From Pseudogymnoascus verrucosus (taxonomy: Eukaryota), in assembly GCA_001662655.1 (NCBI GenBank), contig KV460211.1: a stretch of 64,000 nt of DNA; one strand, written 5' to 3'. A program made the translations under genes and the position numbers. Below the pieces are notes generated by a model, which was given only the letters and a program-made list of their open reading frames with translations, was not told the origin of the DNA and did no database searches. The first letter of the stretch is position 1. The number at the start of each line of letters is the position of its first letter. Shown piece after piece: positions 16,775-42,612 of this stretch.

Positions 16775-18698
16775 ATGTCACTCTATTACGAAGCAGCCGA
16801 CGTGCTGAAAGCACCCACCACCACCGGCGGCAGCCTCAAGTCCCGCATCTTCAGCAAGAAAGACTTCAAAGCCGCCCCAGCACAGATCTACGCCCTAGTG
16901 ATCGAGACATGCAAATGGTCCGCCGTACTAAAAGAAGTCATCGAGAAGACCGGACTACTAGGTCTAGAGAGAAAGGTGCGTCCTCTCCCTTCCTGCCAGA
17001 AAATACCTCTCAACTAACACCCCCCAGTTAACACCCCTCCTCTCCCTCCTCCTAGTCCACGACCTCCTCCTCGCCAAGCGCGGCATCTCCCTCCCCGCCA
17101 CCCATGGCCTCCGCGCCTCCATCGAGCGCCACAAAGCGCGCTTGACCGCCGAATTCACACGCGCCCGCATCCGGCGCGGCCTCGGCAGTCTCGAGGCGCT
17201 GACGGAGCACGTCGAGGCCGGGGGTGACAACACCTCCGGTATCCCAGTTACCACGCACCCTCGCTGGATCCGGATTAACACTCTCAAAACGACGCTTGAA
17301 GACCAGCTCGCCACGACGTTCAAAGACTACACGCGCGCCGCCGAGGTGAGCGAGGTGCAGAAGCGCGGCGGGAAGAAGATCTTCCTCGACGCACACGTAC
17401 CTAACCTCATCGCCGTCCCTCCAAGCGCGGACCTCACGAAATCAGCCGCCTACACCTCCGGCGCGCTGATCTTCCAAGATAAGGCGTCGTGCTTCCCGGC
17501 GTATTTGCTTGACCCGCTTGCTGAGGATGGGGATGTGATAGACTCGTGTGCGGCGCCGGGGAATAAGACAACGCATCTTGCGTCTATCTTGGCTTCGCAC
17601 TCGCCGGCGGTTGACATAGCTGATCCAAGTACCTTGGCGGAACTACCGCAGAGGATTCATGCGTTCGAGAAGGATAAGGTGCGCGCGACTACGTTGGCGA
17701 AGATGGTTGCGCTGGCGGGGTCGGAGGGGATGACGAAAATTCACGCGGCGACGGATTTCCTCAAAGCTGATCCTGAGTCCCCGCAGTTCGCCAAGGTTGG
17801 AGCGCTGCTGCTCGACCCGAGTTGTAGCGGGAGCGGCATCGTAGGGCGCGACGACATGCCAGAGCTGCATTTACCATCCGAAGCGAAGGGCGGTCCAGCA
17901 GCCGGCGGGAAGCCTGGCGGAAAAGGAGCAAAAGGAAAAGGCAAAGGTAAAGACAAACCAGCCGAAGACGAAAAGCCCTCCTCCCAAAAACGAAAACGCG
18001 ACAGCGAAGAAGAGGAGAAAGTCGAAGTCCTCCTCGACGACGACGGAGTCCCCACCGCCATCACCTCCGCGCAAGACCTGCAGGCGCGCTTAGCCGCCCT
18101 AGCTGCTTTCCAACTCACGCTTTTGTTGCACGCGATGCGTTTCCCTGGGGCGAGGAAGATCACGTATTCCACGTGCTCTGAGCATAATGAGGAGAATGAG
18201 GGTGTTGTGCTTGCGGCGCTCGGGTCGGAGGTTGCGAGGGAGAGGGGGTGGAGGGTGCTGAGACGAGATGAGCAGGTTGGGGGGATGAAGAGGTGGGATG
18301 TTAGGGGTGTGGAGGGGCCAGAGGGGGAGTATGAGAAGATTAGTGAGGGGTGTATTCGTGCGAATAAGGGGGATGGGGAGGGGACTATGGGGTTCTTTGT
18401 TTGTCCGTTTGTGAGGGATGGGGAGGGTGGGGATGTGGAGGCGAAGGTGGTGAGGGATGAGAGTGGGAAGATTGTGAGGGATGCGATGGGAATACCTGTT
18501 CTTGCATCTGCATCTGGTGGTGAAGATGTGGCGATGGATGATGAGGAGTGGGGTGGCATTGATGAGGCTGAAGAGCAGGTTGCGGAGAGCGTTCCAAATG
18601 GAGAGGCTACTGCCGCCGTGGATGAGGACGAGAGCAAAGAAGGAGAGGCTTCAAAGCCCGCCAAAAAGAAGAGAAGGAAGGCGAAGAAGAAGACTTGA
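16775..18698 (+). CDS. RCM1: NOL1/NOP2/Sun rRNA m5C methyltransferase Rcm1 (NSUN5), 2 exons
   Basis: MSLYYEAA start, HPRWIRINTLK, IFQDKASCFPA, DSCAAPGNKTTHLA, LLDPSCSGSG, TYSTCS. Confidence 0.92.
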
Positions 18699-18894
18699 TA
18701 AGGGGCGTAATGATATTTGTGAGCATACAAAGCAAAGAAGACATATAGTGTGTAACGTGACGTTCTTTAGTATATATGTAATGTATATTTCTCATCTGAA
18801 GCAGCTAATGCATTTCTGTGAACCTTTGCGCAAGCTCCTCCCCGTCACGGCTGGCTGCTACGCCAAAACCGTTCCGACGTCGGCTCACGGACGT

Positions 18895-21190
18895 CAGCTC
18901 ACGGAGCAACTATATAATGAATTTGTCGGCTTATGTTGTGCGCTTATGTCGTCGGCTTAGGCGTCCGCGCTAGACTCGGAGTGAATTTTGGGCTTCGCGC
19001 AAGCTCAGCTCCATCTACATAGATTTGCGCGAAATTAATTCCACACATTCCTATACATGTTTAGAGGGCTGCTCATAAACCTGCCGTTGCCTGACCATGA
19101 AAGGGGTAAGAAGAAGGGGAAGAAGGCGGAATGAAAAAAGAGGTAAGGAGAAAAGGGGTACGGATAAAAAAGGGGCAAGAAAAGGGGCGAAGAAAGCCGA
19201 AGAGAAGCGGCTGAAAACAACAAGGTCGGAGAGAAAAAGACCGAAGAAAGCCGCAGCGAATGCCGCGGAAAGCCGTAGGTTTGGACGCTGTCCAAACTGC
19301 CATTTCGCACAAATCCAGCTCCATTTAGTTGGGTTTGCGCAAAAACCCCTGAAACATGTTCAGAGAACCCACTGAGGACGAGCAGACTCATCGCAGACCC
19401 AGACAGACAGCTCGCTTACTAGCTTGAAGAGCTGGCTCGCAGACAGGGTCACAGCCGTCCTCACCATCCTCCGGACTCATCACACTTTTGGATTTGATGA
19501 TTTTTGAGCAAATTCAGCATTCTGTAGTTGAATTTGCGCATAAACGCTTCAGCACCAGTCACAAAGGCTCCCCTGGCGTAGACTAGTAGTCCCGTGACCA
19601 GCCTTAAGAAAGCCAGCCCATCGTAGATGGGTCAGGGGCTAGCCGAATCGCAGACAGGGTCACCAACTTCCTTACGAACTTCCGGACTCATCAACTTTTG
19701 GATTCTAGTAGTTTTTGCGCAAATCTGCGATCCCGTAGTTGAATTTGCGCAAAATGCTTCGGCACAAGTTCGGCAGCCTCCCAACCGTTAACCAACAGGG
19801 TTACAAGTTAGCCTTAACACAACCACCTCCTCGTCGACCAATAGGAGCTCTTGTATAGTAGCCGACTCGTAGACAGGGTCGCCGACTTCTTCACGAAGTT
19901 CAGAACCCATCGAACTTTTGGATTCTAGTAGTTTTTGCGCAAATCTGCGATCCCGTAGTTGAATTTGCTTCGGCACAAGTTCGGCAGCCTCACCACTATA
20001 GAGTAGCAGCCTCACAGGCTAGCCTCCACATCACCACGTCGTCGTGACTAATAGGTGCTCTCTCTCCATAGACTAACTAGCCGATTCGCAGAAGGGGTCA
20101 GGTCCGTCCTCACGAAGCTGCGGACTTATCGAACTTTTGGATTCCCGTGGTTTATGCGCAAATCCACGATATGATAGCTGAATCTGCGCATAACCAGCTT
20201 CACCCCACCGCGAGGGGCTTATCTACTCATCGATAAATAAGGGGGCTGGCTCCCTCTCGATTAGCCGAGCTCATAAACAGGGTCGGGTCCGTCCTCACGA
20301 AGTTCAGGACTCATCATCTTTTTGGATTCAGCTGTTTTCTGCGCAAATCCACGATATCATAACTGATTTTGCGCAAAAACGGCTCGAGGCACGTTTGACG
20401 GGTCGGGCCGGGCCACTACCCCGGATCGGTCGGGTTACCCCGCGCGGGTAGGGGGGGGCCTACCATGGCGGCAGATCGTAGTGACGGGCTAGAGCGGCTT
20501 ATGACGGCGGCTTGTAATGGTAGGTATGGTCTTTGGAGGGTTATAGAAGGCCCCGGAAGGGCTCTCGAACGGCTAGCTGGCTGTCTGCCCACGGACTCGT
20601 GTCAAACTTCAGACTAAGCGCAATTCCCCGTCCATCAAGACGAATCTGCGCAAATCTATTCCTATACATGTATAGGAGAAGGTGGCGCACCTCCCTGAGC
20701 TACCTACCGTAGGCAACGTGCCGTAGCCTCGCTAGCGCCGATGGCATGAAGGGGTCATCGTGGTCCTCGCTGGTTTCCGAACGAACAGGATTTTGGATTT
20801 TGGGGGTTTTCGCGCAAATCGCCCTCCTTTTTGACTAATCTGCGCATTTTGCGCAGAGATGCCTCGGTATACCACCGACGGCTTACCGCGGGAGGCTTCT
20901 TTCTTAGGCCGGCTCATCGTGGATTGAATCGGCTTATATCGGACGAATTCCTCCTCCACCGGCATATCCACAGAAGCCGACGCATCGTGGTAGACCGACA
21001 GTCACCGAAAGCAGTTTATCGCGGGTCGGCGCACCATAGGCGGCTTATTTCGGGAGGCACATCGTAAAGCAGAACGGCTGCCTTGATCGCTAGGCTCCTA
21101 GACTTATGGAGTTGCGCGTTTTTCGCAAATCCGCGGCCGTGTGAGCTAATTTGCGCAAAAGCGTATCTGCACAAGTTCAGAGAACGGGTC
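18895..21190. repeat. Degenerate non-coding tandem array of ~10 units (185-311 bp), each with paired TGCGCA-like dyads 30 bp apart
   Basis: Dyad pairs start at 18996/19026, 19306/19336, 19505/19535, 19716/19746, 19936/(19966, partly deleted), 20155/20185, 20340/20370, 20617/20647, 20811/20841 and 21122/21152. The five core units also share AGCCGA.TCG.AGACAGGGTC, CACGAAG, GGACTCATC and CTTTTGGATT. Confidence 0.9.
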
Positions 21191-24100
21191 GCATGGTGGT
21201 GGTGGTGCTGCTGCTGGATTGGCGTGGCGTGTTCACCGGATGGTTCGTCGTGGATAGGCGAGCACATTGAGGCTTAATCTCTTCGCCGTGAACTAGTGAC
21301 AGGCGTGGTCACCGTGGACCAACGCCCATGGCCTCATAGCATGCGGTGATTCTGCACTCCCCTCCCCCACTCCCACCACGCCATTCCCACCCATCACGCC
21401 ACAACCACGCAAAACAGTACTCAAACATGTTTAGAAACCTCACTCACCGAAGACCTCCGCGGCGTGCTCATCATACATAGGCGGCGCATCATGACGCATC
21501 ACAAACACTCACACTGCTCGGCGAAGCTTGGCTTCTTCTCTCGCCGGGGAGCCAGCCAGCCGCGGAGGGGCGTGCTCATGTTGTTTGTCCATTTGCAGCC
21601 CATCCCCGCCATTTCACCTTAACCCCGCCAAAGGTAATCTTGATCTTAAACATGTTTAGAGAAGCACTTGCTCCCATCGTAAAACTGGCATCTTCACCAC
21701 CAACATGCCCATGAGGAATGCCACGGTCATGCCATGTAATGTTCGACATGTCAAACATGTTCCTCAAACCACTCTCATCGTGCCAAGACGCGCCACGAAC
21801 CAACGTCAATCCAAGCCATCAACAACAAATGGAACTGACTCGTGCGGTCTGGCCCCTCCTTCCAGACTTAACCGCTCGAGAGAAAGGTAGGTGAGGCTCT
21901 CGTCCCGGACTAGTAGCTTTGGGAACTGACGTTCCTCCGGACCTGATAGAAAACCAGACTCAACCGCCCAAAAGAAAGCTCAACCACATGTAGAGAATCA
22001 CCTACTCTCATCGCAGAATCGGCATCCCCCACTATCCTGCCATCCATCTCCCCAACTCCATCCATCACCAGACTCACAAAACAAGACCTGACTCGCCTCC
22101 CCGCAAATGCGTTCCCAAACAATGTTCACTCACTCGCTCGCCAACGTGCGGCCCGGCCCACACGTGGACCTAGGACCTACTTTCCAGCTACTCGGCCAGT
22201 TAGCCAGTCAGCCAGTCAGATGGTTGTACGTAACCTTCGCGTCGGTGAACACGTCGGGAGCACCCTGGCGCAGAGAACCACGACTTGCGCGGAGATCCGG
22301 GAGTCTACCGTAGCAAGCAGTAGTAGAAGCAGGTAAGTGGTAGAGTAGAGAATTCAATAGCGCGTCGACTGTTCAGTAGAGCAAGTTGTAGAGAATCCAA
22401 TAGCGCGTCACCACCACCACCGGCGCTGGGTAAGACCCGCGTCTCACCCCTCCGACCTGATTGATAGCCAGGCACCAGAAGCCGTTGAACCCGGTGCCGG
22501 TGCGCTGAGTGAGGGGAGGGAGGGGATAGATACATAACGTGAAAACATGTCTCGTCTCGTCTCGTCTCAGTGACGCGACTCGAGTCGGGTCGATCCGATA
22601 TCGTATGTTATGTTGAGCCCGTATGTATGATGGATGTATAATCCCAATCTCGCTCTCTCCTCTCATCGCGTTGTTGTTTGTTGTTGTTGTGGTGTAGAGA
22701 ACGCGAGATAGCGAAAGGAGAGGAAAGGTCTAGATCACGGGATCACCACTATCGGTGGTGAATCGGTGAATTGGTGACAGGAGGTGTGTCGTGTCGTAAA
22801 AGTGCGATGGGCGACGCCACGGGGGGATCATCCCTTGCTTTATTGAGTTTATTTCATCCCATCCCATCACATTCCTTTCTATGGTCGGGGGATGCTTGAA
22901 TGGGAAGAGGGATCGGTCGGGGGGAGGTAGAGAGGTGATAGATAGATACGGCAACAGGATTGACTCCCTTACCTCGTCGCAAACGCGTTCATTCAATCCT
23001 CACCTCCCTTACATAGACTCTCTCTGACTCCGGGATGAAACCCACGAACCCGTATAATTCATACAGCACCCACCTACTTAACAATCCCATTCACTCGTCC
23101 AAGAAACCGCGTCGAGCGACAACAACAACACCCATAGTAGTAATCTCCCCGCCCATCCCTCCTCCCAATCCGTCTCGCGGCACCACCACCGCCAACGCGC
23201 TCTAGACCCCCATCCCCATCCCGATCGCCAACTCTGGATGTGTACCACACTCTCACACACACTATTAATAGGCTGGACTCATGGGGTATTCTTCTGTCTA
23301 ATCTCCCCCCATCTCCATTCGAGAAAAGCTAATAAACAGCTGCTCTGTCTTGGTACGCAGCGGGGCAAGCAAGAAGGGGAGGTGTGATGGTGGATGGGAG
23401 ATAGATGGGGCCGTGTAATCTCCCCCAACTCGCGCCCAGAGATGGAGAACACGGGATAAGGGGGCGTGGAATGAGGAACGTAAGCCAAGCGCCGAACGCA
23501 CGCACTCACGCACGGTGGTGGGCGGGCCTGGCTTCCCTTTTACGCAACTAGGTAGGTAGGGAAGGAAGGTAGATGAGTGGGAGCGGCTTCTGTCAATAAA
23601 CGCCGAAGCCGAAGATGGGATGAATGGCTGGATTGATGAATGGAGGGATGGATGGTTGGTTGGTCGGCGGCTAGGCTGGGCTGGACGACGGGATCAGCGG
23701 TGATGGTGATGGGATACGAATTAAGAGAGATGAGTTGGAAAGAAGGGAAGTGGTGCGGGTACGTATAATACGACGATAGTATCGGTATCTGACTGTGCTC
23801 TGCATGCCGTCTGTCTGTTCCTGTTCTGATTTGTAGCGGCAGCGGCAGACGACAGGACGGAGGGGGACGACACGACATCAGCGGTGACGGTGTCCCCGTG
23901 CCACAGCGGACAACAGACGGAGTACAGTACGACGGAGTACCTCCCTCAACGTTGCATTCGTGGCTAAATGGGGAAATATAGAGGGGGAGCTAAACGGGGG
24001 TTACGCGTCGATGATTGGATAACAGACGGTAGGTTCAGGGGAAACAGTCTACGTACTGTGGAAACGGCGCGTGGTGATTGGTGGGATGGAGGATTGGATG

Positions 24101-25518
24101 GGTGTTCCTGCAGTAGTGGCGTTACTGTGTGGGTTGGGTTGGGTTGGCGGCAAGTAACGATTGTGCGGTAGGATGATGTACCTGGTGTTGAAAGGGAGCA
24201 AAGTCGGGCCTTCCGCGCTGCGCTGGTGTTTGTTGTTCGCTGGCTGTTTATCTTTTCCCCGTTGCTAGGAGCTAAACAAGCCTAAGAAACCACCAGAAGC
24301 TGCCCGTTTCCCTCACATCAGCAATCCCCGTCAACAGCAAGGCCGGCCCACACCGAACACGCCCGCTACTCCGTACCAAATCTCCCATCTATCTTTACAC
24401 GAGAAAAAACAGGGGACCACTTTACTTTTCCTTTTCTTGTTCACACCTAAAATAGAAATCTAAATCTTAAAAAAATCTTGCTTTAACACACGGAGATCAA
24501 CAGTGGCAACAACGCAACGGGGAGGGGAGGGGGGCGAAAAATAACGGAAAATACCCTTTCCCCTTACTACTACGAATCTACTACCCAATTGGGGAGGTTA
24601 CTGCCGCACGGGGAACGGCCCACAGCGCGCATCTTAATCTCCCGCTGCCAGGGGTGGGAGGGGAGAGAGGGACGGCATGTACCGGTACGAACTAGAGGTA
24701 CTGGACGGACCGGCGCAGGTACGGATTTTAGTGGGCGAATAGCGGACGAGAAGAGCCACCACCACCGGACCACACGCACGCACAGCGCTGAGACCGACAA
24801 CTGGCTGAGACTTTTAGCTGCTGTGGACGCGCTGAGGTTTTTGTGATGATGGGGAGTGGCGGTGGGTGCAGGATGGTGGGTACAGGATGGTGGGTGGTAC
24901 GATGATGCTTTCGCTGTTGTTGTACGCGTACAGTAGTAGGTAGGTTTGTGTCGTGTGCACCATGAGATGCATATTTGTGAAATGCATGTATACAAATACT
25001 CACCAGCGAGGACTTTGTAGGGGAGGGAGGAGGGAGCTACGTAGTGTACGGAGGGAGCACAGAGAACCTGTTTCCTGGTCGGCTTTCGCCTCACTCTACG
25101 TAAGTATACGTCTATCTGTCTACTCCACGCGGGTGCCTCTCTCTCTGTCCGTCTCTCTCTCTCTCCATCCGTCCCTCCCTCGCCGTCGGCCCGTATCGAG
25201 CCCAGCCAGCATCGCAATATCAACACACTATGCGCTCCCCTTCTAGGCCTTCTCGATTCAGCAACAGCATGGGGGAAAAGAGATTAACGTTTAATGACAG
25301 GAAGAAGCAGGTTCCCCTGCCAGCATGAAGTCCCTACAATGGTACGCTGGGGAGATGAGATCTAGGCTATTTTGTGCCGTGATGAGCTTTTAATGAGAGG
25401 AGGCGCAAATTGAGTGGTTATGCCTCAGTGCTCAGTGGCACGCACGGCCAGGATGGGATCTAGGAACAAGCAACGGGCGGGATTATACTTAACGTGTACC
25501 TTTGGGGATGAACACATC

Positions 25519-25656
25519 AGGGGAAACAACATGAACAACATGTACTGTACATCACAAGCACGCCCATAACAAGCTATCAGTCTTCATACTGTCGGGGGAA
25601 AACAAGTACTGTACATACCAAGCACACCCATATCAAGCTATCCCCTTCGTACTGTC
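25519..25656 (+). repeat. Two imperfect tandem copies (~62-75 bp) upstream of the GPI gene
   Basis: gtactgtacatcacaagcacgcccataacaagctatc...cttcatactgtc vs gtactgtacataccaagcacacccatatcaagctatc...cttcgtactgtc. Confidence 0.8.
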
Positions 25657-26174
25657 AGGTACCATCCCAGCCACCCTCGCGGGACAATTTCATCCTGTCA
25701 AGTTTCGAGTTTCCCTTCTGTGCCCATCTCATCCCATGCCCATGCCCATCCCATCAATTCTCCACCCAACCACCGTTCTCCTCTCTCCCCTCTACCTACT
25801 CTACCTACCCTCCTACCGCCAATCCACACCATCCACCCTCCACCCACCACCCCCCTGTCATCCCCTACCCCTGTCAACAAACTCCCCCCCCATTCATTCC
25901 CAACTTCCCAACTCCACAACCACAATCTCCACACCACCCTAATCTCCCGGTAGCCGAATTCCTTTGCTTATATCCCCCCCCATCCTGCTCTCCATCTTCT
26001 TCTTTCTTTCCTCTCTTCTTCACCCACCACGCACTTACTTCCCAGTATCCAAACAGGCTTCTTTGACTTCGGTCGTCCATTCTTTACAGAACTCTATCAG
26101 CTTTCGTCTTTTCGAACCAACACTCGCTTTTTAACCCACCTCACCGTTTTTTAATAAACAACTCTACCGTCAAG

Positions 26175-26960
26175 ATGCAATTCACTTTCGCTACCCTTGC
26201 CGTCATGGCCACCGCCGTCCTGGCCACTGCCCCAGACTCCACCGTCTACCAGACTGAGGAGGTCACCATCACCAGCTGTGCCCCTACCGTCACCGTAAGT
26301 AGATTCTCTCTGATCTGAACGACGCGTTTATCGCACAATAAACCACAAGATCGATCCTAACAGCCTCTCCAGGACTGCCCGGCCCGCTCCACCGTCGTCT
26401 CCCTGACCTCCTACCCGGTCGTCCCAACCACCACCGCCGCTGAGGAGCCCCTCACCACCGAGGCCCCAGTCGTCCCAAGCTCCACCGAGGAGGCCGAGGA
26501 GACCCTCACCAGCTACACCACCATCGTCAACACCATCACCAGCTGCCACCCCACCGTGACCAACTGCCCGATCGGCCAGAAGACCACCCTCACCGTCCCC
26601 TGCTCCACCACCGAGGCCCCCGCCCCAACTGAGACCCCAGTTGTCCCAGAGGTCCCAGTCTCCTCCGAGGAGCCCACCACCCCTGAGGCCACCGTCCCAG
26701 CTCCCCCCGCCACCGTCACCGTCACCATCAACTCCTGCCCAGCTGAGGTCCCAACCTGGACTTCCGTCCCAGTTGGCCCAACTGCCCCAGCTGTCAACAC
26801 CCCCGTCCCAACCATCTCTGGCTTCCCTACCCCAAGCAACGGCACCACCGTCACCCCCCCAGTCGTCACCTCGCCTCCTATCGCTGGTGCCGCCTCGGCC
26901 GTGTCCGGCTCCATCTTCGCCGTTGGCTTCGCCGCCATGGCCGCTGTCTTCTTCGCTTAA
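26175..26960 (+). CDS. GPI-anchored Ser/Thr/Pro-rich cell-wall protein (~235 aa), exons 26175-26294 and 26373-26960
   Basis: Signal peptide MQFTFATLAVMATAVLA; two ITSC.PTVT.CP motifs; Thr/Pro/Glu-rich stalk; hydrophobic C-terminal GPI signal (AGAASAVSGSIFAVGFAAMAAVFFA); strong C-ending codon bias; gtaagt...ctaac...cag intron. Confidence 0.9.
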
Positions 26961-27647
26961 GCGGTTTCAATTCGACCAGAGGGATATATTTCTTCAGTCC
27001 GCCGCCTCGCTGAGCTGTCTTTTCGTTCTGATGAGGAGGGAGAAGATGGGCTGGAGAGGGCATCGGCTATGACTTTCTACGCATATTGGGATGGCTTTGG
27101 GAAAACGAGAGCGGGGCGTGTGTCCTTTGTTTATTAGGTCACGTCTTTTGCGATTGAGATCTTTTTATGTAATTCAGTAATTCTGGCGGGAGTGGTTCGC
27201 ACACATTTGTTTGTCTTGTCTATTATGGTTTTTTATTTCACGGAATAAAAATACAACCGGTTACTTCTATGTTGTTTTATTTCGTCGACCATCGTGTGCC
27301 AACATAAACTGTGTGTGCGGGCTGCTCCTAATTAGTTTTTACTTCCGTTTCGAATACTGGCGGGGTTGCGTGTGGACTGGAAATTTATATACCTTGTTTC
27401 CCCCATATATGATGGCTGTGTCTTTGTCTGTGTCTTAGTTCGCGTTATAAAGTGATCCATTGCCGTATGTATCTACGCGTATATATGTATGTGTATCCAT
27501 CTTTAAACGTCATACGTAAATCCCTCCTCTCATCCCTCTAGATGGCAGTTGTTCCAAGCATCCCCATCCATCTCCACATCTCTCCATATATCAATACCAT
27601 ACCATATCCATTACATACCCCGTCCAGCAGTCAATGAGAACAGCGCA

Positions 27648-27678
<31 letters not shown>
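27648..27678. repeat. Compound microsatellite (GC)7G-(AG)8
   Basis: gcgcgcgcgcgcgcg agagagagagagagag read directly. Confidence 0.9.
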
Positions 27679-28112
27679 CCCTCTAAACACGTGTAGTAGG
27701 AATGCGTTGGACCGGTTTTCGCGCAGAGGTGGGGGCGAGGCGAGTTTGCGCAAATCTAAAGTTTCACTCCCATGACGACTAAGCTGACGAACGACGTAAG
27801 CACACTATACAAGCCGACCAACTTATTGATATGCTTTAGTTCGCGAGCTGGGCGGTTGTGAGATGACGTCTAAACAGGGACAAACGGGGTCAATCTACGG
27901 TGGCTTGAGGGAATGGGAGACTGTAGCATGTCGAATGAAATACTTTTGTTCTTCAGTCTTTCTTCGTTCGGCCTCCTTTTCTACCTCTTTTCTGACCCCC
28001 TTTTTCCCCTAATCTTACCCCCTTCTTTCCTTCCCTCTTCCCCCCCTTATTTTCTTCCCTCTCCTCCCCTTTCCCCTCCATAAGCCGATAACTACTTCAT
28101 AAACAGCCCCTA
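27679..28112 (-). repeat. Inverted, diverged copy of the 18.9-19.26 kb repeat modules
   Basis: The reverse complement contains gtcggcttgtatagtgtgcttacgtcgt, ggagtgaa, a dyad pair (27747/27720), cattccta...gtttagagggc and a purine-rich block, all matching 18895-19260. Confidence 0.8.
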
Positions 28113-28508
28113 TACATTATCATCTATCTCTATATCCGTCTATATCTATCTCTCTCTCCTACGCATCCTCACAAATCGCAGGGAGGGAGGGAGGACAACA
28201 TACCCGTCCGCGTTAATTAATCTTCATACTTCCCCTCTTTAAAAGAAGAAGGGTAGATAGATATTCAAACGTACCTACTCATCACCGAAACCCAACAGGC
28301 CATCCGTCATCTTAAACCGTAATGTTCCCCATCAGCCAGCACCATCTCCCGAACCCCTACCCTCAGCATCCGCACATCATCGCGCCCCCTCCCCCTCTTC
28401 CTCGCCACTGTCGGCCGCCACACTCTCCTCTAACAATCCATTCTCTCTCCCAACATCTCCCTCCGCCTCACCACCACTACCCGCCACACCCTCCTCCTCC
28501 TCCTCCTC

Positions 28509-30261
28509 CTACTCCTCCTCCTCCTCCTCCTCCTCAACAATCTCCACAACCTCCACAACCTCCTCCCCATCCTCCGTATACTCCCGATACAAATTCCTCC
28601 CCCCATACTCCCCCCCCACAACCGCCTCATTCCCAACCACCAAACTCCCCGCCCTATACCCCAGCACCCCACCTTCCTCCTTCACCCTCCCCAGCGCCTC
28701 CGCCACCTCCCCTCCCGTCCTAAGCGGGAACCCCACCTCCCCCCCCGCCCCCCGCCCAGCAAAGATATACCGCCTCAGCACCTCGCTCATGCAGCTTGCG
28801 CCGCACACGTCCTGCGCCCACTTCGCGAACGGGGCGTTGAGATCGACCTGCCCGACGAGTGCCTCGGGGAAAGACCAATCCACGTCCACGCCCTCGAGGT
28901 AGCTGTGGATATCGAAGCAGGGCTGGGCTGCGACTTCTGCTGCGAGGGCGGAGGTCCAGGCGTTGGCGCCCCAGCTGCCGGTGAAGGTGAGGGAGTGGAG
29001 TTGGCGGAGGTGGGTGCGGAGGGAGGGGAGCTGGAGGAGCGTGGCCCAGTCGAAGTCGTAAGCAAAGGCGTTGTCGAGGGTGAAGTGGGCGAGGGAGGGG
29101 TGGTGGGCGAAGAAGGGGGGGAGGTCGTGTTCGTGGATAGTGAAAGAGGATAAAGAGATGTGTTTGAGGTGGGGCCAGGTCGAGGAGCCGAGGAGGGGGG
29201 TGAAGGATAAATTGTGTTCGCTGTTGGCGCCTCTGTGATTGATGCAGAGCGTCTGTAGGTTTTTGGCACCGCTGAGTGCAGTTCCGAGTCTTTGCTGGTA
29301 GAGTCCGTAGTTTGGGTTATACGTGAAACTGGTTTCCAATTTGACGGTTGTCAAGCTTTGAAATGTAGCACACAGGAGCGGGGGACCTAGATCCTTTGTA
29401 GGGTCTCTGACGAAGTTGTTGAACCTGGACAATCGGACAATGTGCCTCCTATAATCAGCCTCGGTCTCATCTTCGCCTCCATTTCCACCCCCACCGCCAC
29501 CCCCATCACCGTTATCATCCCCATCACAACTCAAGAGGCCCAGCTCGAAATTTTTAGAATCGAACCACGAAATGGCCTGCGGCGCCAATTTGCAAGCCGC
29601 AAGAACCGCCACGGTTTCACGGACGAAATAACTAGGCTCCCAGCACGACAAAAAACGAAACGGGCTACCCATGACCTTTGCCATGCTGCAAAACGCTTCC
29701 CCCCATGCTGGCGGAGGGTTCGCGAACCTTGCGCTATTCTCGGAGAATAATGACATGATGCGCACTCCTCTGAAGTTTGGAAGGCGGGATATGGCGGATT
29801 GGAGCATCTCGAAGTCGTATCCGGTGGCCTTCATGCGGTTCTGGTCATTGTAGTACCGGACGTGGCTTTGGTCTATGTCGTTCGTTAGCATAGGCGTCGA
29901 TAACGAACTGCTGGAACTTGGCACACGTACAGGCTTCCTCGACCTCGCTCTCGGAGAATGTCTTTTTCGGCGCCCCAGGTAACAAAAATTCGTTTTTGGT
30001 CCAGGCTATTCGGGTTTTAGGATTCGACACCAATTCGCCCCCATACTTGATGGTAAGGACGTAGTTCCTGTAGACGGGATGCTCTGATATACGCAGCAGG
30101 TTCTCGAGCGAGTTGCGGAATAACATTACGGGTATCACTTCGAACTGCCGTGGCAGACCCAGGGCTGCAAAGGAGCGGCATGTCAAGCGTAGAGATAGGA
30201 TGTCCTCGCGGTCAATGAGTTCAGCGATGACTCGCACGGTTTCTGTTGGAAGCTTGTCCAT
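28509..30261 (-). CDS. F-box domain protein with LRR-like C-terminal region, 2 exons
   Basis: N-terminal MDKLPTETVRVIAELIDREDILSLRLTCRSFAALG (F-box) and SLENLLRISEHP; continues in ORF 28509..29924 after an intron at ~29875-29930. Confidence 0.8.
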
Positions 30262-30581
30262 ATCGACGGTTCTGTGACCGCCTACGCAGAATGATATGAA
30301 CAACGGCAAGCGATGAAGAAACAATGTAGCAGAGATTCAATTAAAATATTGAAATATTTATAGAGAGGTGGTTTAGACATACTCGAGGAAACTATTCCTT
30401 TGTCTATGTGGAGAATATGCACCTTCGCGCCTGCCCTCTATGCACAATCTGTCAGCTGTGGAAAGTTAAATCGTACATAGGCAACAGTGAGTGAGTGAGG
30501 GTCGGGTGAAGTTATGCCTTGTGATTATGAAATTGCGCATCTGATAAGAAGCGCAATAGTAGGGATCCAGTTATCTACATT

Positions 30582-40434: not shown

Positions 40435-42612
40435 CTATGGCTGCACCTTGCTGGCACTCGCAATCGGAGCCCCATTCCCAGCCGAAGCATGGTACTTGCT
40501 GATCTTCATAAAGCCCCTAAATATCAATCAGTATTTTATTTTATCAAACACAGTGCTGGAAGAACTCACCTCGTCAAATCAAAAGCCGGCTCCTCTCCCT
40601 CACTCTCCTCATCCTCCCTATCATCCTTCACATCCGCAGACCTCTCAGGGCTCTCCCTCCGCCTCCTCGGCGCGGGACTACTACTCTGCGGCGCGTCCCC
40701 ACCAAGTCCGCGGAGCGGGCTGACATCAAACCCCAGCCCGCCCTGCGCCCCCTTAATCACACTCGGTGTATTCCCAAGCTCTGCGAAACGCCAGAACGGC
40801 GCGGGACTCGACGTCGGCATGTGTTGGCTGGGTCGCTGCGCTGTGCTCGGTGGAGCAAAGTGCGGGTGCTTGCGTACGGGTGCTGGCGTTAGAAATGCCG
40901 TGCCCTCTTCCTGGGCAAACGACGATGACAGGACCGGAGACTCGGCTGCATTCTCGCCTATCCCAAACGGGTTGTTGCTGCCTGTTCGGCGCCTCGGTAA
41001 CGGGCTGCCATCACCGGGTTCCTCGTCTAGAAGAGGTCTTGGAAGCTTCAGGCGGTCCGGGGTCTGTTGAGATCCGTTTGGAGGGATACCGCGCATAGTG
41101 GGGCTTCCACCTGGACTTCTCTTAACCCTCCTTGACGGGGAGCCACCCTCCTTATCACCCGGGCCATGAACAGTCCTGGTAATCTTGGGGCCTGGTGATG
41201 AACGTGGAGTTCCAGAGGTCTCGCGTCGCTTTGGAGGGGACTTGCGTGCAGACTTTGGGCCCCAAGCATCGGAGATCATGTGCTCACGCATATCGGGAGT
41301 GAAGCACCAATACCCTCCCTTACCGGTGTCTTCTGGGCCGCGCTGGCGAACCTTGAAGCCGGGATTGAGGGAGAGGTTATGGCGGATGGAATTTTGCCAG
41401 CCCTTGAAGAACTCAGGGCGGCGATAGTGAGCGTAATTTCGTTTCATGTATTCGTAGATATCGTTAAGAGTTGCCATCTCGTTTTCGGATGTGTAGAGAG
41501 CTTGGCTGATGAGCTGCCCATAGGTGAAAGCCGGCTTAATATGGGACGTAGCATCGTTCTGATAATCAATCGTATCCGCGCTCATAATAATGGTTCCACC
41601 AGCACGTCCAAACGCAGGAGAGGATGTAGGAATAGGGCCCCTCGCTCTCTGCTTAGCTGGGGTGTCTGGCTTCTTGTAATCCGGAGGTGCAGGTGCCAGT
41701 GTTGGATGGTTAGATCCCAACGTTCCCTCTGCTTTCCCTCTGTTCGCCGCAGCAAGAAAGTTGCCTGTAATCGGCAGCTCGCTCTGGAAGGGATCCGAGG
41801 CAATAAGGCCCGCTCGTTGGAGATATTTATCATCGATTTCGACTGGTTGATCGTCCGTTGGTAGAACAAACATCATCTCGACGCCGGCTACTTCAATGAC
41901 TGCCCCGCTCTGGAGCTTCATTACATGGCCTCGGCGGACCTGCTGGTCGTTGACTTTGATGCCATTTCGCCCATTGACGATGACGTTCCACTGCGATGTC
42001 TGGCTGTCAAAGTATATCTCGGCGTGTAATCGAGAGACCAGCTTGTTAGGTCCAATATCGATATGGATCCTGCTTGGTTCCGTCGGCGCCGCCGGCAATT
42101 CCATGCCATCCCCTTCATTGCTCACCGCCGGGGTAGTTGGGGCGTTCTCGTCCTGGAGAGGTGCGATATATCCTTCTGGTGGTCGCCCAATGTTGGTCCG
42201 GAGACGCTTGACGTAGAACGTCCAGTCCTTTCCGGTAACTTTGGCGTACGCAGCAACGTTCTTGCTTTGTCTTTGGTGGTGATGATTGTCATGGTCGCGC
42301 GCAACTTGAACGAAGTGATCTGGCATAGACAGATGTTGTGATACGGTCGACACCAGGTCCTCGTCGCTCATGTTCAGTTCTGCTTGGCTGGTGGGCAATT
42401 TCACAGGCTCCGGGGCGCGTGTTTCGGACTTGTTCATCTCGGCCTTTGTCTTCGAGCGAGTTAGCAGTTTCCCTCAACAAGATAAACCTCATGCTCACCC
42501 TTCTTCTCTTCGCGGATTGCGCTGGGGACGTCAAGGTAGTATCCATGTCGTCAGAATGGTTGATGGGCTGCCCACGTTTGGCACGCTGGGTGCGTTTCGT
42601 GGAAGGTGGCAT
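40435..42612 (-). CDS. FKH2: FHA + forkhead transcription factor (Fkh1/Fkh2 type), 3 exons
   Basis: FHA: AYAKVTGKDWTFYVK...IGR...IDIGPNKLVSRLHAEI...GRNG; forkhead: KPAFTYGQLISQA...GWQNSIRHNLSLN; last exon RGFMKISKYH...VQP* ends 40435. Confidence 0.88.

Follow-up and report, generated by a model that had tools for sequence, protein, structure and literature searches.

The DNA analysed here is a stretch of 64,000 nucleotides of Pseudogymnoascus verrucosus contig KV460211.1, referred to below as the window. It contains a non-coding head-to-tail array of ten units at 18973-21186, and the features of the locus are listed in Table 1. An NSUN5-type gene ends about 100-170 bp ahead of the repeat and is convergent with an F-box gene downstream. 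Unit 1 and a distal inverted copy of it bracket a 9 kb Pfam-empty domain between these convergent genes. The Ser/Thr/Pro-rich ORF inside this domain resembles a GPI-anchored cell-wall protein, which we take as a lead only; its Atlas scores of 0.88-0.89 are under the 0.9 level.

Table 1. Features of the array locus, in window positions.
Feature	Position	Strand	Remarks
NSUN5-type rRNA methyltransferase gene (upstream)	16968..18698	+	PF21148, PF01189, PF21153
Unit 1 with upstream flank (left arm of inverted pair)	18796..19074	+	profile match 18973-19070; dyad cores 18997/19027, then tail motif ACATGTTTAGAGGGC
Half-unit ("unit 0"), lone dyad	18824..18846	+	78% to 18993-19015, first dyad of unit 1
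Purine-rich spacer, units 1-2	19099..19270	+	short repeats at 19101-19208
Unit 2	19278..19369	+	dyad cores 19307/19337; tail ACATGTTCAGAGAAC
Unit 3	19474..19569	+	dyad cores 19506/19536; TTTTGGATT head
Unit 4, best-kept copy	19685..19779	+	dyad cores 19717/19747
Unit 5	19904..19990	+	first dyad 19937; second lost by short deletion
Unit 6	20123..20219	+	dyad cores 20156/20186
Unit 7	20308..20404	+	dyad cores 20341/20371
Unit 8	20594..20681	+	dyad cores 20618/20648; tail resembles unit 1 tail
Unit 9	20780..20884	+	dyad cores 20812/20842; additional dyad at 20851
Unit 10	21093..21186	+	dyad cores 21123/21153; tail ACAAGTTCAGAGAAC
Remnant: second dyad and tail motif	21405..21444	+	repeat comparison
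Remnant: tail motif	21642..21669	+	repeat comparison
Ser/Thr/Pro-rich ORF, hydrophobic C-terminus	26361..26960	+	inside bracketed domain
Diverged inverted copy of unit 1 and flank (right arm)	27674..27956	-	dyad cores 27721/27748
F-box gene (downstream)	28512..30336	-	PF12937, PF00646, weak matches

Searching the window with a core profile (nhmmer) gave ten plus-strand matches with E values from 3.7e-22 to 1.5e-13 and no further match at E<0.01 anywhere in the 64 kb. This reproduces the ten units of an earlier note on this DNA together with their periods, which are in order 310, 199, 211, 220, 219, 185, 277, 194 and 311 bp; the length of the first period is due to the purine-rich spacer. The limits which that note had set are too narrow, however, since the half-unit, the tail remnants and the inverted copy lie beyond them. 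Divergence among the units is too great for Tandem Repeats Finder to report the array.

Each unit keeps a module of ~42 bp consisting of two self-complementary words of the form T3-4 GCGC A3-4, the ideal dyad being TTTGCGCAAA, a perfect palindrome. The description of every unit as a head followed by TGCGCA dyads proved too strict: the TTTTGGATT head, which in the younger units forms a third fixed word 20 bp upstream, is present in six of the ten units (3, 4, 5, 6, 7 and 9), exact TGCGCA occurs in 12/19 dyads and TTGCGCAA in 6/19, and several dyads are degenerate. The strict pattern TGCGCA-N24-TGCGCA occurs three times in the window, compared with a mean of 0 and a largest count of 0 in 100 shuffles, and 14 of the window's 27 TGCGCA words fall within 18827-21157.

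Each of the nine intact units has its two GCGC-centred dyads at a distance of exactly 30 bp, as the earlier note had observed. In an alignment of 14 units, nine from the window and five from a metagenome contig (L032), mean column identity was 0.91 in the dyads, 0.64 between them and 0.56 outside; an inner TA(G) is found at a fixed place (columns 33-35). Across the 30 columns that separate the cores, none of the ten aligned units had an indel, while the adjacent conserved core had seven indel events in 78 columns and three in 25 (0.009-0.012 per base per unit). At this rate 3.8-5 indels are expected in 14 x 30 = 420 bases and none was observed (P about 0.007-0.02, with a weaker true significance because the units share ancestry and are not independent). 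The rigid spacing is thus a modest excess over the local indel rate. Thirty bp is about three helical turns, or more precisely 2.86, a non-integer number.

Four related genomes (X2, X3, X4 and X6) carry the array in synteny; their contigs skip blocks inside 19483-20364 and so vary in unit number. The skipped blocks of 200, 210, 245, 256 and 305 bp correspond to gains or losses of whole units. This comparison covers the stretches with contig support, which excludes for example 20457-20577, and an X6 contig that apparently joins 18718 to 21746, skipping the array, was left out because it has 20 letters on one side. The presence of the same locus in four related genomes indicates that the array persisted through speciation while turning over. 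The 30 bp distance is kept in units of two relatives despite different inner letters. The metagenome contig carries five homologous units, 5/5 at 30 bp, and this match looks orthologous; a pattern scan of metagenomes gave 89 loci, of which 88 were chance matches and only this one was homologous.

Four of the 30 differences between the window and X2 over 18400-19463 fall within the 50 bases of dyad 10-mers, and eight lie inside 19303-19344, i.e. at 8/42 positions of unit 2. The dyads thus do change between orthologues, but into other dyad-like forms. The core of unit 2 at 19307 reads GCAC in the window and GCGC in 4/4 relatives. The proposal of the earlier note that the spacing is under selection for a bipartite site stands in part: the contrast of 0.91 with 0.56-0.64 and the spacing in the metagenome contig and in the units of two relatives speak for it, but the single dispersed copy with 27 bp between its dyads, the modest indel excess and the altered unit 2 dyads in X2 do not.

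A rival reading is a functionless tandem repeat in decay, minisatellite or macrosatellite-like, which we consider possible but rather unlikely. Here the dyads would appear conserved through gene conversion or unequal exchange together with template-switch correction of quasi-palindromes, and the 30 bp would persist simply because indels are infrequent over such a short distance. Gene conversion among units and self-templated correction of palindromes could indeed mimic selection. Consistent with this explanation, unit number differs among relatives, the X2 orthologue of unit 2 resembles unit 1, as conversion predicts, the spacing excess is modest, and the 27 bp copy demonstrates that the spacing can change. 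Moreover, transitions are about as frequent as transversions among the units (17:12, 6:12 and 11:8), as in ordinary drift and with no RIP signature; RIP as source of the divergence was rejected (TpA/ApT 0.90; (CpA+TpG)/(ApC+GpT) 1.12). The unit 10 hairpin aligns reversed in X3, X4 and X6, which may be a hairpin-associated inversion of purely mutational origin. On the other hand, a purely neutral history has to account for dyads of 0.91 identity inside units that are otherwise 60-80% alike, whereas conversion should homogenise entire tracts rather than islands of ten bases. Under neutrality CpG-bearing GCGC cores should not be the slowest sites to change, and the persistence of the array at a single locus, in five genomes or more and the metagenome contig, also counts against it.

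Unit 1 has an inverted copy at 27674-27956, which is a new observation of this analysis and the only dispersed copy found in the 64 kb window. The inverted alignment of 18912-19070 with 27832-27677 has 67% identity over 169 bp (E 2.6e-5) and is extendable to ~280 bp (18796-19074 versus 27956-27674). The two arms of ~200-280 bp are 8.6 kb apart, and repeated units adjoin the left arm only. This arrangement raises the idea that the termini of an ancient DNA transposon, non-autonomous and ~9.2 kb long, survive at the locus, with unit 1 and its inverted copy as long terminal inverted repeats (TIRs), the array as subterminal repeats and the dyads as former transposase-binding sites. CACTA, hAT and Mutator elements typically carry transposase-binding words repeated in their subterminal regions, and the arms bracket exactly the stretch free of Pfam genes between convergent housekeeping-type genes. 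Against this origin, which we regard as improbable, a target-site duplication is absent at both candidate boundaries: no repeat is shared by the flanks at 18795/27957, and none was seen by eye at 18868/27905. No transposase or other mobile-element domain was detected among the scanned ORFs, neither in the 75 ORFs of at least 50 aa within 21100-28500 (E<=1) nor in two further ORF sets of the window (27 and 28 ORFs), which agrees with the earlier statement that no transposase is nearby. CACTA-type termini were not seen, and there is no second copy in the window. Furthermore, four relatives share the left part in synteny, the X2 contig could hold the entire interval, the interior has a plausible host gene, and the array is present at the left end only. 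A Helitron end, which has its hairpin 10-12 nt ahead of a 3' CTRR, was rejected as well: a CTRR of any kind occurs in 2/9 tails within 40 nt past the second dyad, at three sites with differing distances and hence at no fixed distance after the hairpin, and Rep or helicase domains were lacking among the ORFs scanned in the window.

The units were also considered as an RNA hairpin array, in which small-RNA precursors or lncRNA modules would use the dyads as arms of a 12-15 bp stem, a reading to which we assign a low probability. The hairpin between the dyads is the minimum free energy fold in 9/9 units on the minus strand and in 8/9 on the plus strand, with z values from +0.66 to -5.3, and its stem is often two to three pairs longer than the dyads. 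A few two-sided changes occur, at column pairs 22/39 (CG 3, TA 2), 13/48 (CG 1) and 24/37 (GC 1), and an X2 change at 19341 converts a C.A mismatch to C-G. However, a self-complementary word in two copies pairs by construction. Alifold consensus folds of the ten full units reach -10.9 (plus) and -11.4 kcal/mol (minus), with covariation terms of +0.34 and -0.31 kcal/mol and one and zero compensated pairs, respectively. The hairpin option of the earlier note thus finds no support from covariation. Wobbles conflict between the strands, with C.A at columns 22/39 in 8/14 units and G.T at columns 23 and 24 in four units each; folded as DNA, 3/9 units and the right-hand copy do no better than shuffles. 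A fixed loop length would also be unnecessary, as exact spacing matters to proteins on duplex DNA, by helical phasing, and not to a hairpin loop. There was no Rfam match at E<=0.1; 17000-23000 contained a single match at E<=1, to a bacterial sRNA and no better than chance (E 0.73, 18.6 bits versus a gathering score of 40), and ARAGORN predicted no tRNA genes. Hammerhead, snRNA Sm-site, SL-RNA, box C/D, H/ACA and tRNA-like elements were dropped by eye, lacking conserved boxes and Rfam matches.

A decayed protein-coding repeat or exon array, in which 30 bp would stand for ten codons, is very improbable. Thirty is a multiple of three and one plus-strand frame yields a similar peptide (F-A-Q) in several units, but this frame is open in 7/14 units and the best of the six frames in 8/14 (27-28 codons). 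Column identity has no 3-base periodicity (0.69, 0.65, 0.68), one of the nine periods (219) is divisible by three, and overlapping ORFs have no Pfam match. The absence of a conserved reading frame, claimed earlier, is thereby confirmed.

The reading that we favour, with a probability of roughly 0.4, is a locus-specific tandem repeat that may be kept as a cluster of paired palindromic candidate protein-binding sites. We counted in its favour the dyad identity of 0.91, the fixed 30 bp and the persistence in relatives, together with the lack of any coding, Rfam, tRNA, transposase, RIP or covariation signal. Counted against it were the modest spacing excess, the 27 bp copy and the non-integer number of turns, as well as the changed orthologous dyads in X2 and the limitation of TTGCGCAA to 6/19 dyads. 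In this scenario a segment of ~200 bp would have been duplicated in tandem long ago at one locus, where genes are sparse on an ascomycete-like chromosome, to give at least ten units. These would have diverged by drift and been gained and lost through unequal exchange, with retention of the ~42 bp module and its two palindromes centred exactly 30 bp apart. Each palindrome is presumed to be bound by a sequence-specific DNA-binding protein acting as a dimer, and a distance of about three helical turns would place two dimers on roughly one face, where they could cooperate. As a homotypic cluster of paired sites, the array might constitute a regulatory or architectural element serving the 9 kb domain bracketed by the array and the inverted distal copy.

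A further proposal, which we rate as a long shot, is that the module is recognised by an undescribed DNA-binding protein specific to the lineage, perhaps a derivative of a transposase or recombinase. The left array and the inverted copy would then delimit a 9 kb chromatin domain with a cell-surface gene inside it, serving as boundaries, as looping elements or as substrates for inversion between the inverted sites. The earlier note saw in the array the best candidate for an undescribed system; nothing shows such a system, and there is no associated protein. If the sites are real, the locus is a natural experiment on bases and spacing, with one bipartite site present in about fifteen diverged versions, and the 42 bp module would be usable as bait for its fungal binding protein. 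If the array is neutral, it is a tidy case of gene conversion and palindrome self-correction imitating selection. In both cases the feature is local to one clade and does not represent a general mechanism.

Several known systems resemble the array in part. The word TTGCGCAA is a C/EBP-type bZIP palindrome; the ideal array dyad contains it and is fully palindromic, which is what a dimer site should be, but the exact word is confined to the minority of dyads given above. Full-text searches gave no fungal factor with TTGCGCAA specificity among the matches listed, which were mostly primer sequences. Among the matches listed for the 10-mer palindrome there was no such element, and the literature searched on TGCGCA as a fungal palindromic promoter word offered nothing relevant.

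Ndt80 binds as a monomer, and we know of no middle sporulation element (MSE) arrays of twin-dyad form. The ideal array dyad amounts to two overlapping inverted CGCAAA cores, and 14/19 array dyads match NCRCAAAW on either strand, the motif being one of low information. The MSE of the Ndt80 family is given in one article as gNCRCAAAW, with its core upstream of about 2000 yeast genes (PMC1326232). GCGCAAA paired with Ndt80 was not found in the literature searched.

A looser form of the Mac1 copper-response element has T/G, and the array dyads share with this element a T-run followed by GC.C(A). According to one article, the element is TTTGCTCA in yeasts and DHNTGCTCANNN in Fusarium oxysporum, and its Sordariomycete core, from ChIP, is TGCTCA (PMC11563359). 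A cluster of such elements was rejected because TGCTCA occurs in 1/19 dyads and the array conserves G at the position of its second T; among the ORFs scanned, no copper genes lie nearby.

To DNA transposons with long TIRs and subterminal repeats (Mutator, CACTA, Foldback) the locus is similar in its inverted arms and in the repeated units beside one of them, but it has no target duplication, transposase or other window copy and is syntenic in relatives. Of five loci obtained in a scan of viral contigs, none was homologous beyond the dyad word. The phage contigs L091, L092 and L094 contain the same palindromic word in phased clusters, with three sites ~15 bp apart, but nhmmer matches cover the dyads only, the hosts are bacterial and each array spans only tens of bases, so that they serve as an analogy for protein docking only.

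Satellites are known to keep a protein box within diverging units, as exemplified by the CENP-B box in alpha satellite. Homotypic clusters of transcription factor sites, as found in promoter or enhancer segments duplicated in tandem, and CENP-B-type satellites are like the array in their drifting head-to-tail units with a short word fixed in sequence and position, and in a unit number that is variable among relatives. In contrast to them, the array described here is confined to a single locus with only about ten units, and what it keeps is not a single box but a pair of palindromes at 30 bp.

The array is a real feature. Searching with a profile of the cores of nine units recovered ten plus-strand copies of the roughly 200-bp unit (E 3.7e-22 to 1.5e-13), and the 64 kb window outside the array held no further match below E 0.01. 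Every one of the nine intact units has its two dyads, the small palindromes forming a 42-bp module, placed with their GCGC cores exactly 30 bp apart as previously claimed, and the reported unit periods were obtained again; in unit 5 a short deletion has removed the second dyad. The window has three exact matches to TGCGCA-N24-TGCGCA, against none in 100 shuffles, and 14 of the window's 27 TGCGCA words fall within 18827-21157. The unit formula in the earlier note captured the twin dyads but was too generous on dyad word, head and uniformity of the units: TGCGCA is exact in 12/19 dyads, TTGCGCAA in 6/19, and the TTTTGGATT head upstream of the module is present in only six of ten units. Two unit types are distinguishable: units 3-7 and 9 bear this head, and ACATGTTYAGAG-like tails close units 1, 2, 8 and 10. 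Both types derive from a single ancestral unit.

Between units 1 and 2 a purine-rich tract of ~170 bases with short GAAG/AAAGGGG-type repeats is inserted; in two related genomes (X4, X6) ~136-139 bp of it are swapped for ~153-155 other letters. A second recurring word, (C)GGCTTAT, is scattered in the array spacers (18925-18960, 20217, 20496-20515, 20883, 20932, 21044), with one inverted occurrence at 28079-28101, past the right arm described below. A protein-coding repeat was rejected: as the earlier note had observed, no reading frame is conserved, the best being open in at most 8/14 units, codon periodicity is absent and, of the nine unit periods, 219 alone is divisible by 3. RIP was likewise rejected as the source of unit divergence. 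Helitron ends were also rejected: CTRR occurs within 40 nt in only 2/9 tails, at unequal distances, and neither a Rep nor a helicase domain was seen.

By its gene content the window resembles part of a core chromosome from an ascomycete-like eukaryote, with housekeeping genes for Vps5, Med11, a TFIID WD40 subunit (TFIID_NTD2 domain), Kri1, NSUN5, SMC, Cdc20 and others. The array starts ~100-170 bp past the stop of the NSUN5-type gene, and no ORF with a credible Pfam match was found from 18.7 to 28.5 kb, an interval flanked by convergent genes; 75 ORFs of at least 50 aa in 21100-28500 gave only chance-level matches at E<=1. One ORF therein is, as a lead only, similar to GPI-anchored fungal cell-wall proteins; in the one Protein Atlas query, made with this ORF, the nearest clusters were Ascomycota, with scores of 0.88-0.89, below 0.9.

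Features of the array and its surroundings (window coordinates)
Feature	Position	Strand	Remark
NSUN5-type gene	16968-18698	plus	upstream neighbour of array
Ten-unit array	18973-21186	plus	profile matches
Purine-rich tract	19099-19270		between units 1 and 2
G run	20440-20465		
Ser/Thr/Pro-rich ORF, hydrophobic C-terminus	26361-26960	plus	inside Pfam-empty interval
(GC)n and (GA)n microsatellites, side by side	27650-27680		immediately inside right arm
Right arm, diverged copy of unit 1 and upstream flank	27674-27956	minus	inverted
F-box gene	28512-30336	minus	far end of Pfam-empty interval
Forkhead-FHA transcription factor gene	40566-42473	minus	

The ten units of the earlier note stand, but an inverted recurrence of unit 1 and its upstream flank, 8.6 kb away, had been overlooked. 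By blastn, 18912-19070 matched 27832-27677 (67% over 169 bp, E 2.6e-5), the array region having no other match in the remainder of the window, and local alignment extended the homology to 18796-19074 versus 27956-27674. The dyad cores of this right arm (27721 and 27748) are 27 bp apart versus 30 in the array. Together the arms enclose the entire Pfam-empty interval, an arrangement that old transposon ends would also produce; this origin is unlikely, three of the four defining features of a TIR transposon not being seen in the window. No target-site duplication was visible at the candidate arm ends checked, and the claim of no nearby transposase was borne out by the absence of any remnant among the 75 ORFs.

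When 14 units (nine from the window, five from the metagenome contig L032) were stacked without gaps, mean identity was 0.91 in the dyad columns (n=22), 0.64 in the inner columns between the dyads (n=19) and 0.56 in the outer flanks of the module; an inner TA(G) at fixed position was also retained. Alignment of the ten head-type units showed no indel in the 30 core-to-core columns, with seven nearby events in 78 conserved upstream columns and three in 25 downstream columns. At this local rate of 0.009-0.012 per base per unit, 3.8-5 indels would be expected in 14 x 30 bases (P of zero ~0.007-0.02, for units that are not independent). The 30-bp spacing is thus rigid, but the statistical case for special constraint is moderate because the excess is modest, the units are non-independent and the spacing of the right-hand copy has changed by 3 bp.

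Two duplex sites must lie a fixed distance apart to be in helical phase, while a hairpin needs no fixed loop length; since the fixed spacing suits the former, we prefer a reading as paired duplex sites. That the array encodes RNA hairpins, as had been suggested, is quite improbable. As RNA, the dyads of every unit can form a 12-15 bp stem on both strands, but a self-complementary word present twice will pair in any case. Column pair 22/39 is C.A in 8/14 units, a wobble on the minus strand only, columns 23 and 24 are G.T in four units each, a wobble on the plus strand only, and the pair table shows no consistent strand and few double changes. The consensus fold of ten whole units reached ~-11 kcal/mol with covariation terms of +0.34 / -0.31 and 1 / 0 compensated pairs, and Rfam and ARAGORN found no RNA family or tRNA in the array region. 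DNA folding gave z <= -2.6 in 6/9 units, the right-hand copy being no better than shuffles.

Array and flanks are syntenic in all four relatives whose contigs were compared with 18400-22000 (X2, X3, X4, X6). Within 19483-20364 these differ by whole-unit steps (skips of 200, 210, 245, 256 and 305 bp, some back-steps), a pattern characteristic of tandem repeats undergoing unequal exchange. Two relative-only units differ in their inner letters, and their dyads are again 30 bp apart by hand count. Among 89 metagenome loci matching a head-plus-dyad pattern, only L032 (1081 bp) was homologous; all five of its units keep the 30 bp spacing, and it is probably the same locus of a related species because its end matches the spacer between units 6 and 7. 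The array predates the split of several species; its units are gained and lost over time, and the bipartite palindromic module is retained.

Region 20580-22000 (X2, 16/1421 bases different; X3, 9/529 and 8/634) is better conserved than 18400-19463 (30/1064; 40/729). This non-coding stretch, comprising units 8-10 and 0.8 kb further, holds no convincing ORF and is ~1-2% different in X2, X3 and X4, less than the NSUN5-type gene 3' end and downstream sequence (~3-5.5%). Of the 30 positions at which X2 differs in 18400-19463, eight lie within the 42-base module of unit 2, four of them in dyad 10-mers, which speaks against simple purifying selection. The X2 form suggests gene conversion, since it resembles unit 1; a functionless repeat shaped by conversion is a somewhat less likely account than paired binding sites, and both versions of this module are still dyad-like. 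The unit-10 module (21119-21160) aligned in reverse orientation in X3, X4 and X6, with 7 mismatches over its 42 bases, which may reflect a small inversion between dyads or a palindrome effect; the ~200 bases after it are replaced there. The contigs of X3 and X4 stop at the G run with poly-G loose ends, probably an assembly-breaking homopolymer.

Altogether, the best-supported reading (probability roughly 0.4) is a tandem repeat specific to this locus and kept as a cluster of paired, putative protein-binding sites. Interest is moderate, mainly as a well-defined bait for finding the putative reader protein. The ideal dyad holds the C/EBP-type palindrome, as proposed earlier, but the exact word is limited to the six dyads carrying TTGCGCAA. 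The only recognised DNA-binding factor in the window is the Forkhead-FHA protein, whose known type of site is unlike the dyad. Among the matches listed for the dyad words in the full-text literature, no such element was described. The Ndt80 element gNCRCAAAW, whose core is stressed as common in PMC1326232, is matched by 14/19 array dyads, and the core TGCTCA of the Mac1 element, defined by ChIP in Fusarium oxysporum (PMC11563359), by 1/19. The array would be a further example of an already known sort of element. Three phage contigs (L091, ~1495-1550; L092, ~1475-1550; L094, ~1495-1550) each carry three TTGCGCAA-type palindromes ~15 bp apart, operator- or pac-like word arrays. They share the word alone with the fungal repeat and are otherwise unrelated; such phased protein-docking arrays in bacteria serve as an analogy only.
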